Assembly (NCBI GenBank): GCA_964442455.1
Contig: CAYTZB010000001.1
Span: 85,910 to 149,909 of the forward strand
Direction of reading: 5' to 3'
DNA from: an uncultured Gammaproteobacteria bacterium
GTDB taxonomy: Bacteria > Patescibacteriota > Microgenomatia > UBA8517 > JACQJR01
DNA length: 64,000 bases
The translations under genes were made by a program, and so were the position numbers. The notes below the pieces were generated by a model. That model was not told the origin of the DNA. It worked only from the letters and a program-made list of their open reading frames with translations, and searched no databases. Positions 31,701 through 34,951 of this stretch are shown here, one piece after another. Within the stretch, counting starts at the first letter, position 1. Every line of letters starts with the position of its first letter.

Positions 31701-34700
31701 TCAACTCACCCACCAATAGAGCTACGGAAGTAATTATCTTTGTGGGGCCAAATACAATTACTCGCTATATTCAAGGGGTTGACCGAAGCCACAGAATTGG
31801 GCAAACAGAAAAAGTTACCATTCACATACCATATGTTACTGGAGATTTGCTTGGACGAGGTGAGACCTACGACGAAGCAGTAATTAAACGACTTATGGAT
31901 GAACTGGTAGTTTTTGGAGCTGTCGTCGACGGGCGATTCTTTATGGAGCCAAAAGATATCTATCAATCAATTATTCAAACAGATAGAGCAAAACCGAGAG
32001 GTAGTGTTGAATTTACACGAGAGCATCGACAACGATCAAGAGAGAGGCGACGTGGTCCTTATACACCTCGGTTGCCCGGAGAACCAACTCCAAGAGTAAT
32101 GATAAGTGAAGATGAGGTTATCGATTTTGGATGGATGCAAAATATTCGTGAGGTTGTTACTCGTGAGAGCGAGTCTGAACAGGATATAGTGAGAATGTAT
32201 CTAGAGCAGATAGGACAATACCCACTATTTAATCCGGATAATCCAAATCACGAAAGATTGGCGTTCGATTATTTTAAAAGTGACAGAACCCTTGATGAAT
32301 TAAAGATAGATTCAGAATTTCTTTCAATGATTAATCCGCGAGATAGAGAAGATTTTGGACGTGTTCTGACTGATAGCCAAAGTATTCAAGATTTAATTAT
32401 TAACTGTAATCTCCGCTTGGTAGTTTCAGTAGCTCGTCAACGTCAAGGTCGCGGCTTACCCCTTTTGGATTTAATACAAGAAGGAACATTTGGCTTAATG
32501 CATGCGGTTGAACTCTTCGAACCCGAGCGAGGAAATAAATTTTCAACATACGCAACGTGGTGGATACGCCAAAGTATAAACAGAGCGATCATGAATTCTT
32601 CGCAGACAATCCGATTGCCAGTTCATATGTATGAAAGAATTGGTTTGGCTCGGAGATTTGCAAGAGAATTTGAAGCTACAAATGGTCGCACCCCAAAAGT
32701 GAGTGAGCTGCGCGAGTTAGTTTTAACTCAAACAAAGTTTTCCGAAAGTGAAGTTGACTCTGTAATCGAAACCATTGCTTCAGGAGTTATGCAAATGGGC
32801 ACTTTGGACTTTGAGATTGGGGAAGATGGAGAAGATACATTATATGATGTCGTTGCCGACAAGAGAATGGATGTTGAAGCAACTGTTTTGGAAGAAACAG
32901 AGGATGATGAGCTGAATACTGAGGTAAAGAGGGCTCTGAAAGAGAATTTGGATGAAAGAGAAAGAAGAATAATAGAGTTAAGATTCGGTTTGGGTGAAAC
33001 AAGAGAGAGAACTCTAGAAGAAGTCGGACAAGAATTTGGATTGACACGAGAACGTGTTAGACAGATTCAGGAAAGAAGTTTAGGCAAACTTAGTAGAGAC
33101 AAACAATTACGCGCTCGGTGGGAAGGCGATGCTCCGAGTTTTGTGTATCATACGAGTGCAGAGCAAGCAGCCATCAGGTTAGGATTATTCAATAAGAAGC
33201 AAAGTTATGTCGAGAAAGTTGTCGCAGAGTTACCTCCCCATCTTCAGAGTGTGCTTAATCAACGTATTCTCAAAGCAGCATCTTTGATAAATGGAGATGC
33301 ACAAAATGGGACTTCCGAAGTGGATCAAAGTTATCAATTTACACTTGCACGACTTGCAGTATGGGAGAAGTTAGGGACACTTTATCCAGACGATTTAACT
33401 GACTCACGGCAACGTCGTGAAATATATGGAAAAGATTTTGGGCCATATTTTGACCTATCGCTTATGAAACGGTTGTATGAGCGAAGGGATGGTAGAGTTA
33501 GACTGTTAGATAATCGAGTGTTATCGCACTTTTTTGGATTTGGCGATGGTCAGAAACCCCTCTTAAGTGTAGAGAAAGTTACTCAAGAGCTAGGAATTCC
33601 ACAGGATACAGTTACCGCGGGTCTTCATAAGGGGTTGCAGGTACTTGAAGCTCCACCAGAGAAGAAAACCAGAGCAGAAGAGCTCAGCAGAGAACACAGC
33701 ATTGTTGCACAGGCGTTTCGCAATCAAGAGATTTGGGATCAAATTCCTGATAGAGAAAAAAGCATATTAACACTCTATTTCATACGTGGTGGCGATCAAC
33801 AAGTATTAAAAGAGAATTTTTCGAGAATTTTCGGGATTTCTCTGCCTGAAGTAGATGCACGAATAAACGCTGCAGTAGAGTTAACTGAACGACTTTTAAC
33901 AGAAATTCAGGCTAAACCAGAACGTCAACGAAGGGTAACAAGAGGAGAACTTAGAGATATGGTTGAAGGATTATTGAAAGAGTATCCTTGGTTGAGCAAT
34001 AGCGAAGTAACAGAGCATCTTTCAACAAAACTAAAACAAGATTTAAGCAAAGCTCGTGTTGACCAAGCGAGGAAGAGCTTGGTTGCCCTTGAGAGAGTAG
34101 AGTCACGGCGTGGAAAATTAGATATACTTGACTCAAGAGTCGAAGCATTACTACTCCAAGGATTAAAACCCCAGCAAATTGCTGAGAGTTTGGTTCAATC
34201 AGAAAAAAGAGTTATTGCTTCTATAAGAAGATTGATTAGCACAGGAAATCTTGATACCCAACTTATTCAGTGGAGAAACGATGGCCTTTCAAAGGAAGAA
34301 ATTGCTGAAAGAATAGGAAGTTCAGCTGTTACCATAGGGAGAAGGCTCCGGGTACATGTTGAATCTGGTGCTCTACCTTTCCATCCTCGTGATCCTCGGA
34401 CAGTTGATGATTCTGGAGTTACCGAGCACGTCAGAAACCTAGACGGTATGGTTGAGTCATTGATTCTTCAAGATCCAAAAATAAAAACTAAAGAAATTAT
34501 TGCTGCATTGGAACCTACAGTAGGAAAATACATGGCGGAATTAACAATCCGGAGAGCAAAGAAGCGGCTGGTAGCTGCAGGGAGAATACCTTCTCATTTA
34601 TTTAATCTTACCCATGAGGAAGCAGTAGCTTTAGATCAACAAGTAGAAGAATTGGTAAAAAACGGAAATCTCTCTTATAAAGAGATAGCTGCTGCATTGA

Positions 34701-34951
34701 ATCAGCCAATCAGCAGAATTAGAAATTCTAAAGAAAGACTTGTCAAGACTCGCAGAATTGAGCCTAATCCAAAGTATGTTGACAAAGGAGCTAGTGCAGC
34801 TCTAGAGGAGTACTTATCAACACATCATGGTGATGAAATTAATTTATCAGAGTTTGCGCGCTCTATTGGTATTAGCCGCGAACGCGCAAGCCAACTCTAC
34901 AAGCGGTTAACCAATTCGCAGCTTAAGGAATTAATGACGCGGAGGAAGTAA
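28778..34951 (+). CDS. Giant fusion protein: N-terminal shared module + SNF2-family ATPase + complete primary-type sigma-70 factor + C-terminal array of ~8 HTH-like units
   Basis: SNF2 motifs: SDEPGTGKT (nt ~30563), VIVDEAHNVKS (~30938), GESITL, QGVDRSHRIGQ (~31781). Sigma motifs: region 1.2 DIVRMYLEQIGQYPLF (~32182), region 2 DLIQEGTFGLMHAVELFEPERGNKFSTYATWWIRQSINRAI, TIRLPVHM, region 4 ERERRIIELRFGL...LTRERVRQIQERSLGKL. It is a single uninterrupted ORF. Confidence 0.88.
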   Translation: MQREFESQRTIEITPGKSPTNEVIERVGREITHCDLLHMWNFEVDGRNQQEIDEELQEAIRHVVTYTHTINGAEYGGYLPDETLEEKLNLAWFQKVGLLKPVALQFKGEIADVVRFAWPEGFHQEEQERVQAFRLRPDTIEFWQELKKDLEGIQTPKNMALSTFMMYYDPRTKRQSYLEGGKYIYLYGLFFQDTLAEESIHNPVDYLSSRFNPPRDNQEFIDLVKETRELAEIKLRKPYGSVMDIQERLADPSFLEEFVIDLNEYTEDFTFANFMQGWLNYTTPNGDIIRWSARGKYRELLNDLLARRWIAQLGENAGSESTPKKPAEIFYEAAPQNLKLLLLAKFPKDFSHLTLESLEQSQVVSDEVRAILEETSLLGVDSQDRILETLGNYILAKHKNNESLNYLDGQRIKTILLQVSQQILPAVIRRAASSKTESVLTDSRIVPTVLSEANSENQEVADSAQELLESLREAYYFPLLKSLLYKPTALFWTSYLTEHPEEVTVPPAMLINFLEKHLKGRVEEIALQGDQKEVLGYLSQEVLPNVYRHFAEVATFAQTIAHFRTKDIEGKPQHLLFHQVEGIKKLIEDKGGIVSDEPGTGKTLILALSALNLMDRSGIVGRGTPGRALVVGTKSVIDNWESELDAHIRTDYIDVVNVNFTNQKDRQVSRDELQARLRELERLLRNPRHQRQMVLVNYDLFRHPTFKKILGSYPFDSVIVDEAHNVKSRFLESINTYEKSDDLRSSTSVAKRTRGLYSYIRTSPDLSVFFATSTPYVKELVEPLIMAHLVNEQLVPRERVQQLMEDTVGTHQVLRQVMIRRKKEEIADLPPKETVVVPIDLTLLSEEEKQEFKAIAQEIMENENFAARFYSMLSLEGLAKYPWLTEKVKELISDGRKVIIFTPFVVGENRYTAPISTARIAAKLMGAGIPINSVAVLDGSLDEGERISVQGRFRNQRDPKVLVGNYITAGESITLNSPTNRATEVIIFVGPNTITRYIQGVDRSHRIGQTEKVTIHIPYVTGDLLGRGETYDEAVIKRLMDELVVFGAVVDGRFFMEPKDIYQSIIQTDRAKPRGSVEFTREHRQRSRERRRGPYTPRLPGEPTPRVMISEDEVIDFGWMQNIREVVTRESESEQDIVRMYLEQIGQYPLFNPDNPNHERLAFDYFKSDRTLDELKIDSEFLSMINPRDREDFGRVLTDSQSIQDLIINCNLRLVVSVARQRQGRGLPLLDLIQEGTFGLMHAVELFEPERGNKFSTYATWWIRQSINRAIMNSSQTIRLPVHMYERIGLARRFAREFEATNGRTPKVSELRELVLTQTKFSESEVDSVIETIASGVMQMGTLDFEIGEDGEDTLYDVVADKRMDVEATVLEETEDDELNTEVKRALKENLDERERRIIELRFGLGETRERTLEEVGQEFGLTRERVRQIQERSLGKLSRDKQLRARWEGDAPSFVYHTSAEQAAIRLGLFNKKQSYVEKVVAELPPHLQSVLNQRILKAASLINGDAQNGTSEVDQSYQFTLARLAVWEKLGTLYPDDLTDSRQRREIYGKDFGPYFDLSLMKRLYERRDGRVRLLDNRVLSHFFGFGDGQKPLLSVEKVTQELGIPQDTVTAGLHKGLQVLEAPPEKKTRAEELSREHSIVAQAFRNQEIWDQIPDREKSILTLYFIRGGDQQVLKENFSRIFGISLPEVDARINAAVELTERLLTEIQAKPERQRRVTRGELRDMVEGLLKEYPWLSNSEVTEHLSTKLKQDLSKARVDQARKSLVALERVESRRGKLDILDSRVEALLLQGLKPQQIAESLVQSEKRVIASIRRLISTGNLDTQLIQWRNDGLSKEEIAERIGSSAVTIGRRLRVHVESGALPFHPRDPRTVDDSGVTEHVRNLDGMVESLILQDPKIKTKEIIAALEPTVGKYMAELTIRRAKKRLVAAGRIPSHLFNLTHEEAVALDQQVEELVKNGNLSYKEIAAALNQPISRIRNSKERLVKTRRIEPNPKYVDKGASAALEEYLSTHHGDEINLSEFARSIGISRERASQLYKRLTNSQLKELMTRRK

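Follow-up and report, generated by a model that had tools for sequence, protein, structure and literature searches.

Domain organization of the SNF2-sigma protein

We analyzed a stretch of 64,000 nucleotides (nt) of contig CAYTZB010000001.1, hereafter the window, in which an open reading frame (ORF) at positions 28778 to 34951 of the + strand encodes a protein of 2057 amino acids (aa) that joins an SNF2 ATPase to a full sigma-70 factor and continues, behind sigma region 4, into a long tail of helix-turn-helix (HTH) units. The order of genes is murD, ftsW, murG, ftsA, a gene for a 590-aa protein, the SNF2-sigma gene, a gene for a 451-aa protein and ftsZ, and these mur and fts neighbors place the locus on a cellular chromosome. 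The window also encodes an isoleucyl-tRNA synthetase, whose best named relatives come from Candidatus Microgenomates, Woesebacteria and Blackburnbacteria, so the host is a bacterium of the Candidate Phyla Radiation (CPR, Patescibacteria). The same 2057-aa protein, with the same two neighbor genes, is found on an independent assembly; the long ORF is therefore not an assembly artefact.

The protein begins with an N-terminal domain, followed by the SNF2 ATPase (aa 574-1040), the sigma-70 module (regions 1.2 to 4, ending at about aa 1443) and a tail of 614 residues (nt 33107-34948). Both Pfam and NCBIfam recognize the ATPase and the sigma module, in which region 1.2 lies at aa 1136, region 2 at aa 1208-1271, region 3 at aa 1286-1363 and region 4 at aa 1390-1438, and the RpoD/RpoS-type models of NCBIfam span aa 1136-1443. 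The canonical region 4 (aa 1385-1443, nt 32930-33106) is matched by Pfam Sigma70_r4 over aa 1390-1438 with an E-value (E) of 8.6e-24, and the tail starts directly after it. An earlier note on this DNA, made from the letters alone, had put the tail at about 620 aa, close to the 614 aa that follow region 4.

Eight units of distinct kinds

The tail contains eight units in the order u1, u2, u2b, u3, u4, u5, u6 and u7. By sequence these are of two or three kinds, u1, u2 and u7 resembling sigma region 4 and u2b to u6 forming five distinct three-helix HTH units. Among the latter, type B (u3, u6 and, more weakly, u4) is about 45 aa long with the consensus LDxQVExLRxQGLxNxEIAxxLxxxxxxIxxSxxRLIxxGRIEP, and type B' (u2b and u5) differs from type B by 8-10 residues inserted between helices 2 and 3 (alignment A7). 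Type A is the terminal unit u7, which carries the sigma-4.2-like motif INLSEFARSIGISRERASQLYKRL.

The earlier note had described the tail as an array of about eight sigma-region-4/LuxR-like units of 55-75 aa, starting at position 33560. All seven HTH strings that it quoted are exact (aa 1597, 1681, 1796, 1837, 1904, 1965 and 2021; nt 33566-34909), and the count comes to eight once u2b, which it had not listed, fills the gap at aa 1722-1777. The units do recur, at a measured HTH-to-HTH spacing of 41-84 aa, and the u1 domain begins about 66 nt earlier, at nt 33494. The HTH fold holds for the array; a single kind of unit does not, as sigma-4 likeness is confined to u1, u2 and u7.

Unit u1 (aa 1573-1626, nt 33494-33655) is a diverged region-4-like unit according to hhalign, Smith-Waterman alignment and AlphaFold2 (AF2). 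Against the alignment of the family's region 4, hhalign gives a probability of 82% (P 1e-5) with 44 columns in register; the best Protein Data Bank (PDB) profile matches are region-4 domains of extracytoplasmic function (ECF) sigma factors (E 0.3-0.6), and the predicted local distance difference test (pLDDT) score is 88-95. Unit u2 (aa 1653-1714, nt 33734-33919) is likewise diverged, with an hhalign probability of 78% (P 1.8e-5) over 51 columns across regions 4.1 and 4.2, best PDB profile matches to region 4 of SigF and RpoD (E 0.1-0.3) and a 4.1-like N-terminal helix that Pfam Sigma70_r4 matches below threshold (E 0.039, 13.9 bits, cut-off 24.1). Long profiles weaken the match of u1 and u2 to region 4 (P 0.023), and the sequence support for their kinship to the whole of region 4 is moderate.

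The terminal unit u7 (aa 1997-2046, nt 34766-34915), a sigma-region-4.2-like HTH (...ISRERASQLYKRL), is matched by the hidden Markov model (HMM) of A units with an independent E-value (i-E) of 3.2e-20. This HMM was made without the window protein and also matches its true region 4.2 (aa 1412-1433, 6.7e-9). Pfam Sigma70_r4 scores u7 at 20.3 bits, against the cut-off of 24.1, and gives u1 no match; PDB profile matches of u7 are to region 4 of RpoS, SigA and RpoD. In complexes of sigma region 4 with the −35 element, the recognition helix contacts DNA through R-E-R-x-R-Q. These contact residues are absent from u1 (PQDTVTAGL; helix not basic, net charge 0) and from u2 (SLPEVDARI), an acidic unit with a net charge of −2 and an isoelectric point (pI) of 4.9. 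Unit u7 reads SRERASQ, with a serine in place of the second arginine, and the A units of homologues keep SRERVRQ.

The first of the five other units, u2b (type B', aa 1722-1777, nt 33941-34108), is supported by Smith-Waterman alignment, the family HMM, alignment A7 and AF2, which on alignment A7 gives three helices with pLDDT 94-97. It is followed by u3 (type B, aa 1780-1825, nt 34115-34252), recognized by HMMs and scored by GerE (PF00196) at 13.8 bits, against a gathering cut-off of 23.5, and by the B-like u4 (aa 1826-1864, nt 34253-34369), recognized by two HMMs and matched below threshold by 14 Pfam HTH families, with AF2 helices H396-403 and H407-420 (pLDDT about 87-89). Unit u4 opens a conserved four-unit cassette, u4-u7, that is 40-45% identical to P0004, P0005, P0006 and P0008, four homologues described below. 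The most conserved stretch of this cassette is the linker ALPFHPRDPRTVDDSGVT (aa 1865-1882, nt 34370-34423; alignment A2), in which L41, P42, P45, D47, P48, R49, T50, D52, G55 and T57 are invariant and which AF2 predicts to be non-helical with a beta-bridge. Behind it lie u5 (type B', aa 1883-1938, nt 34424-34591), a strongly basic unit (net charge +4, pI 9.9) found by Smith-Waterman alignment, HMM and AF2 (three helices, pLDDT 91-95), and u6 (type B, aa 1946-1996, nt 34613-34765), which two HMMs recognize, which has sub-threshold Pfam matches to HTH_24 (E 1.5e-3) and Sigma70_r4 (E 4.4e-3), and whose AF2 helices are H503-519, H524-531 and H535-547.

Homology and predicted fold of the units

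To assess the repeats, Smith-Waterman scores of unit pairs were calibrated on 300 shuffles. The highest z-scores are 9.6 (u5/u6), 8.9 (u2b/u5), 6.7 (u3/u6) and 5.1 (u3/u5), and against the protein's own region 4 they are 4.5 (u7), 4.2 (u1) and 3.7 (u2). An HMM built from 11 repeats of the homologue P0009 alone matches u3, u4 and u6 at i-E 2.8e-11, 2.3e-6 and 9e-12. In a non-circular test, HMMs of the family were iterated with the window protein excluded, and these homologue HMMs match u2b at 3e-3, u3 at 4e-12, u4 at 3e-9, u5 at 3e-5 and u6 at 2e-13. Self-BLASTP of the tail returned the identity match and no internal repeat; units of 45 aa that share 25-35% identity lie below its sensitivity. 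Repeat detection, which the earlier note had proposed as a check, is thus significant by shuffled Smith-Waterman scores, by the P0009 HMM and by the family HMMs.

The tail units share homology with HTH domains, and the HTH fold is also what the models predict for them. Because the Pfam matches of the window units themselves are all sub-threshold, this assignment draws its support from homologues, profiles and models. In P0009, P0015, P0011 and P0004 the homologous units pass the gathering scores of HTH_38, GerE, HTH_23, Sigma70_r4_2 and HTH_24, and homologue A units pass the Sigma70_r4 cut-off of 24.1 (P0004, 35.2 bits; P0008, 32.6 bits). Searched against the PDB, the B-unit profile finds 2LVS (Cbp2) at E 1.5e-9, matching both repeats of 2lvs_A, then DosR, NarL, RcsB, GcrA and AdcR; the LuxR likeness seen earlier for these five units therefore comes second to that of Cbp2.

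AF2 models the whole tail, from an alignment of 22 sequences, as all helical, with a mean pLDDT of 80 and a predicted template-modelling score (pTM) of 0.41; each of u4-u7 has two helices, the second of them short, then a turn and a long helix. Units u2b and u3 had no alignment coverage in this run and are poorly resolved in it. When paralogous B'-B and B-B pairs served as the alignment in a second run, the result was clean three-helix units at pLDDT 85 and pTM 0.64. The turn between helix 2 and the recognition helix 3 is short. Foldseek matches the units to LuxR-type DNA-binding domains with probabilities of 0.92-0.98 and TM-scores of 0.6-0.69 (NarL, DosR, LiaR, ComA), and it also finds Cbp2, the winged-helix repeats of SelB, Rns and RecX. 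The predictions are of three-helix HTH units and not of the non-HTH helical bundles that the earlier note had named as the contrary outcome.

Three further elements complete the tail. Immediately behind region 4 lies the motif W..D.PSFVY..SAE.AA.RLGLF (aa 1448-1475, nt 33119-33202; located by regular expression), for which AF2 predicts short helices. It occupies the same position in 11 of the 42 family proteins, sigmas without SNF2 among them, and judged by its sequence it is a family hallmark that joins sigma region 4 to the HTH arrays. A helical connector follows (aa 1476-1572, nt 33203-33493; alignment A1 and AF2), kept only in P0002, P0003 and P0007 and all-helical in AF2 with pLDDT of about 77-92, except for a low-confidence loop at tail residues 61-64. 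The connector has no Pfam match and no collinear likeness to either sigma region 2 or region 3. We considered whether the N-terminal half of the tail is a second sigma module in degenerate form and rejected this, as hhalign of aa 1444-1716 against aa 1128-1443 returns only a local match between u1 and region 4 at a probability of 2%. The protein closes with a short basic end (aa 2047-2057, net +3, from the translation) that, with the stop codon, covers nt 34916-34951. All of these features lie on the + strand.

A rare family of sigma factors and small proteins

An exhaustive HMMER search of 1.84 billion cluster representatives identified 42 proteins in the family, whose only named members are from CPR bacteria (Microgenomates, Daviesbacteria). 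B-type units occur in 1 to 12 copies per protein. Five homologues of 1587-1900 aa have the full SNF2-sigma-tail architecture (P0002, P0003, P0014, P0021, P0031). Others are sigmas without SNF2 that carry up to 12 repeats (P0007, P0015, P0016, P0020, P0022, P0030), short sigmas or free-standing 220-aa proteins with the cassette of the last four units at 40-45% identity (P0004, P0005, P0006, P0008, P0010, P0011), and pure repeat arrays of 12 units each (P0009, P0027). Since many members, such as P0007, P0015 and P0016, carry the array on a sigma lacking SNF2, the array travels with the sigma factor and not with SNF2.

The tails of P0002 and P0003 have five units (u1, u2, B', B and A), and their B'-B-A aligns to u5-u7. 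The window protein is about 170 residues longer in the tail, through u2b, u3, u4 and the conserved linker, and these extra residues are, by sequence, consistent with internal duplication or acquisition of a cassette. Other searches recovered little of the family: a word-indexed protein search found no homologue with the tail and two matches with the cassette alignment, and a first contig scan with the tail found no match. The contig scan with cassette alignment A2 identified two loci in metagenome-assembled genomes, one of them of Candidatus Daviesbacteria.

We also observed that in short sigmas of about 480-530 aa (P0004, P0005, P0010, P0012) regions 2 and 3 are present and a canonical region 4 is not. 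A four-unit cassette (u4-like, B', B, A) stands in its place, and the sole Pfam Sigma70_r4 match is the A unit; an example from Candidatus Daviesbacteria lies at L002 5489-6976. Because it is the only Sigma70_r4 match in P0004-like sigmas, the A unit of at least some family members probably functions as a −35-type reader. At the other extreme, P0023 (108 aa) and P0042 (96 aa) are minimal free-standing proteins of one B and one A unit, about the size of the two-HTH Cbp2, and the arrays may have grown from an ancestral module of this type.

Our literature search found nothing relevant on sigma factors with HTH arrays or on SNF2 fusions in CPR bacteria, and the architecture has no dedicated Pfam family. 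As far as that search showed, the HTH-array sigma is an undescribed architecture built from known domains, in keeping with the earlier view that such units on a sigma factor would be highly atypical.

Relation to known HTH proteins

The best solved sequence relative of the B units belongs to a pair of proteins, Cbp1 and Cbp2, that resemble them in consisting of tandem small three-helix HTH repeats made by duplication. Cbp2 (2LVS) binds the repeats of CRISPR loci (short palindromic repeats that are clustered and regularly interspaced) with two HTH domains joined by a basic linker (PMC3597662). In Cbp1, successive HTH domains are aligned along one DNA repeat (PMC10883916), a precedent for linked HTH units that read contiguous DNA. 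Cbp1 and Cbp2 are free-standing crenarchaeal proteins of 2-3 units with short basic linkers, whereas the window tail has five B and three sigma-4-like units fused to a sigma factor in a CPR Microgenomates bacterium and has no known tie to CRISPR. The family B consensus ends in G-R-I-E-P followed by an often-basic position (columns 39-44), and the inter-unit linkers of the window protein are mostly not basic.

Sigma-70 region 4 (PF04545) aligns in register with u1, u2 and u7. A normal sigma has one region 4, while the window sigma has one canonical and three extra copies, of which u1 and u2 are without the R-E-x-x-R-Q contact residues. The LuxR/GerE domain (PF00196) resembles the B units by profile and by fold (NarL, DosR, RcsB, EvgA, StyR), although LuxR domains have four helices against three in the B units and no window unit reaches a Pfam gathering score.

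In the Myb R1R2R3, paired and POU domains, adjacent stretches of DNA are read by linked homeodomain-like three-helix units, and the SANT-SLIDE modules of ISWI and Chd1 anchor an SNF2 motor to flanking DNA. Like ISWI and Chd1, the window protein combines SNF2 with an HTH array in one chain; these eukaryotic multi-HTH readers and SANT-SLIDE have no demonstrated homology to the tail beyond the HTH fold. Among bacterial sigmas, two-domain ECF factors of groups ECF41 and ECF42 bear regulatory C-terminal extensions of the SnoaL-like or TPR type. They share with the window protein a long domain appended after region 4, but the window sigma has regions 1.2, 2, 3 and 4, and its extension is an HTH array.

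Gene cassette and neighboring genes

The SNF2-sigma-tail gene is the middle member of a conserved three-gene cassette, between genes for a protein of 530-620 aa and one of 445-523 aa. The cassette is present in the window at 27022-36351, between ftsA and ftsZ, and at two further loci (L004, 3-8877; L005, 212-8301). At L005 its neighbors are a CRP-like regulator and a TraG/TrwB-like gene, a hint that its origin may be accessory or mobile. The upstream 590-aa protein of the window (27022-28794) contains two copies of a module of 80-130 aa that is also found at the N-terminus of the SNF2-sigma protein (BLASTP E 2e-10 and 2e-7), and a C-terminal module of about 70 aa that it has in common with the C-termini of the sigma and HTH-array proteins P0015, P0020 and P0030 (E 8e-6 to 2e-4). 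No Pfam, PADLOC or PHROG family was found for the 590-aa protein.

A search for an origin of the SNF2-sigma gene in a defence system or a phage found generic matches only. PADLOC matches are restricted to generic ones of MzaA to the sigma and of ZorD/DpdE to the SNF2 part, with none for the flanking genes, and PHROGs gives generic HTH matches only. Directly downstream of ftsZ, the window encodes a 917-aa ResIII/DEAD helicase (37761-40514) with PADLOC matches to PbeA and to models of type IV methyl-directed restriction enzymes (E 6e-16 to 4e-10); it may be a defence gene inside the cell-division cluster.

A phased palindromic intergenic element

The mur/fts cluster also contains, at two sites, a palindromic intergenic element. 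Its left arm consists of 3-5 TAATT repeats in a 9-bp phase (AATTAACCTAATTGnnCTAATTnnTCTAA), followed by a variable center and an inverted arm of AATTAG repeats, and each of the two sites has its inverted partner arm. One lies at 13807-13925, between a Mur ligase gene and the next gene, and the other at 36449-36545, about 100 nt downstream of the gene that follows the SNF2-sigma gene and upstream of ftsZ. The three-repeat TAATT pattern has 8 matches in the window, against 0.06 expected. A 25-base core of the element occurs without mismatch in at least 120 metagenome contigs (L006-L125), among which an inverted arm follows within 230 nt in 60 of the 96 testable cases and in none of the 96 upstream controls. 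The element is a widespread palindromic intergenic one. No Rfam or literature match was found for it, and the z-scores of its RNA folding are only −2.3 and −2.5. Near the second site, the ftsZ ORF as called mechanically starts with a TTG (36491) that falls within the element, and the real start appears to be an ATG at 36594 (ATGGCTCTTGTTAAACC...). Ahead of the element, at about 36409, there is a TTGACA box.

Function of the array

The pI of the tail is 9.4, against 5.8 for the whole protein, and its C-terminal half has a net charge of +13; the basic recognition helices of this half favor DNA binding, as far as sequence can indicate it. Across 157 B units of the family, conservation falls on the hydrophobic scaffold and on the G-L, I-A and G-x-I-x-P positions, and the columns of highest entropy (25, 26, 29, 30 and 33), which are rarely acidic, fall at the start of or along helix 3. 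This is the pattern expected if each unit were to read different DNA. The helices of u1 and u2, neutral to acidic, speak against −35 reading by these two units. The earlier note had proposed that the array might specify extended or repeated promoter elements, supply decoy units for −35 recognition or wrap DNA. We lean, by a modest degree of confidence, towards the tail being a chain of eight independently folding HTH domains that acts as a modular tether to, or reader of, DNA upstream of the −35 element.

In the holoenzyme, region 4 sits on the −35 element with its C-terminus facing upstream. The chain would leave region 4 at this C-terminus and bring its basic C-terminal half along the DNA upstream of −35, where each B unit would put its recognition helix into one stretch of major groove in the manner of Cbp1/Cbp2, Myb and paired domains. 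Such an array would give the sigma factor extra affinity or extended sequence selectivity without separate activators, and it would anchor the fused SNF2 motor; u1 and u2, having lost the basic contact residues, would more likely be spacers or protein-docking modules. The array would have arisen through duplication and shuffling of units that are in circulation among the sigmas and small proteins of a rare family. The SNF2-sigma-tail architecture is kept in independent assemblies and in the homologues of 1587-1900 aa.

Several observations weigh against a DNA-reading tail. The Pfam matches of the window units, all of them to HTH families, are below gathering scores (E 4e-4 to 0.05), and the Foldseek E-values are not significant (at least 1e-3), as is usual for helical domains of 50 residues. 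The best Foldseek matches of the whole model are tandem winged-helix scaffolds that bind protein or RNA (UFL1-DDRGK1, SelB), and u1, u2, u4 and u7 have net charges of zero or below. The placement upstream of −35 comes from general knowledge of the holoenzyme and not from a model of the window protein, and no DNA target or binding site was found for the tail. The family is very rare, at 42 of 1.84 billion representatives, and with TraG/TrwB-like genes adjoining the cassette at L005 the protein may be part of an accessory or mobile system instead of core promoter recognition.

These points bear on what else the array could be. It is possible, if unlikely, that the array is a protein-protein scaffold or regulatory module: u1, u2 and u7 would mimic region 4, either as its rivals for the beta-flap or an anti-sigma-like partner or as auto-inhibitors of the true region 4, and the B units would serve as a rigid scaffold of helices to which the two flanking proteins or the SNF2 domain are recruited. 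Such a role would suit u1 and u2, which keep the architecture of region 4 with the basic recognition residues lost, the UFL1-DDRGK1 match (probability 1.0) and the match of RecX to the three-unit model, the pTM of the three-unit fragment, which hints at fixed packing between units, and the conserved cassette, whose flanking proteins share modules with the SNF2-sigma protein. It fits poorly with the strongly basic C-terminal half and its variable positions on recognition helices, with the DNA binding of the nearest solved sequence relatives (Cbp2, NarL, DosR, DeoR) and with the A unit, which as the only Sigma70_r4 match in short sigmas such as P0004 probably works in DNA recognition. It is mainly for u1, u2 and u7 that a role as scaffold or decoy is plausible. 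We give somewhat less credence still to the array binding nucleic acid non-specifically, or binding RNA, so that it coats or wraps DNA, as a nucleoid-associated protein does, or holds nascent RNA and keeps the SNF2-sigma protein on its template. The tail is basic, the SelB winged-helix repeats among the structural matches bind the selenocysteine insertion sequence (SECIS) RNA, and the 12 near-identical repeats of P0009, P0015 and P0027 suit coating over the reading of one site; on the other side, the positions on the recognition helix differ between units while the scaffold is conserved, which points to unit-specific reading over uniform electrostatic binding, and no RNA-binding family was matched by sequence.

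That the repeats are chance matches of amphipathic helices, or the ORF an artefact of assembly or frameshift, might be suggested by the self-BLASTP result and by the failure of the word-indexed search and the first genome scan to find a homologue. Against this stand shuffle z-scores of up to 9.6, HMMs from other proteins that match the units down to 1e-13 and 3e-20, the identical 2057-aa protein on an independent assembly and five homologues with the SNF2-sigma-tail architecture, and chance or artefact is excluded. A further alternative is that the B units form a modular code, one unit per step of about 9 bp with its specificity set by the variable positions of the recognition helix, by which arrays would target sigmas to phased repeats, with the TAATT element as a candidate. 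We regard such a code as very improbable. No phased repeats were found upstream of the three-gene cassette, where by eye only sigma-70-type promoter-like sequences with an extended −10 are seen. The element is absent from the homologue loci L001-L005, in a test without the power to exclude a link, and 645 kb of element-bearing contigs contain one weak B-unit match only; with no supporting link seen, the probability that the TAATT element is the target of the HTH array is low.

Promoter recognition by sigma-70 factors is taken to involve a single copy each of regions 2, 3 and 4, with extra contacts made by the alpha C-terminal domain or by activators. The sigma factor described here itself carries five to eight extra HTH domains, and its relatives carry up to 12 B units; a compact HTH repeat unit of about 45 aa also emerges from the analysis, conserved in its scaffold and variable at the recognition positions. 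The genomes of CPR bacteria are small and their regulators few, and we know of no CPR transcription machinery that has been studied biochemically. If the modular code were true, it would amount to a programmable reader made of HTH domains, akin to transcription activator-like effectors (TALE) or zinc fingers, wired into bacterial transcription initiation. If the tail is a tether or reader of DNA upstream of −35, it would represent a different way to build promoter specificity or template anchoring.

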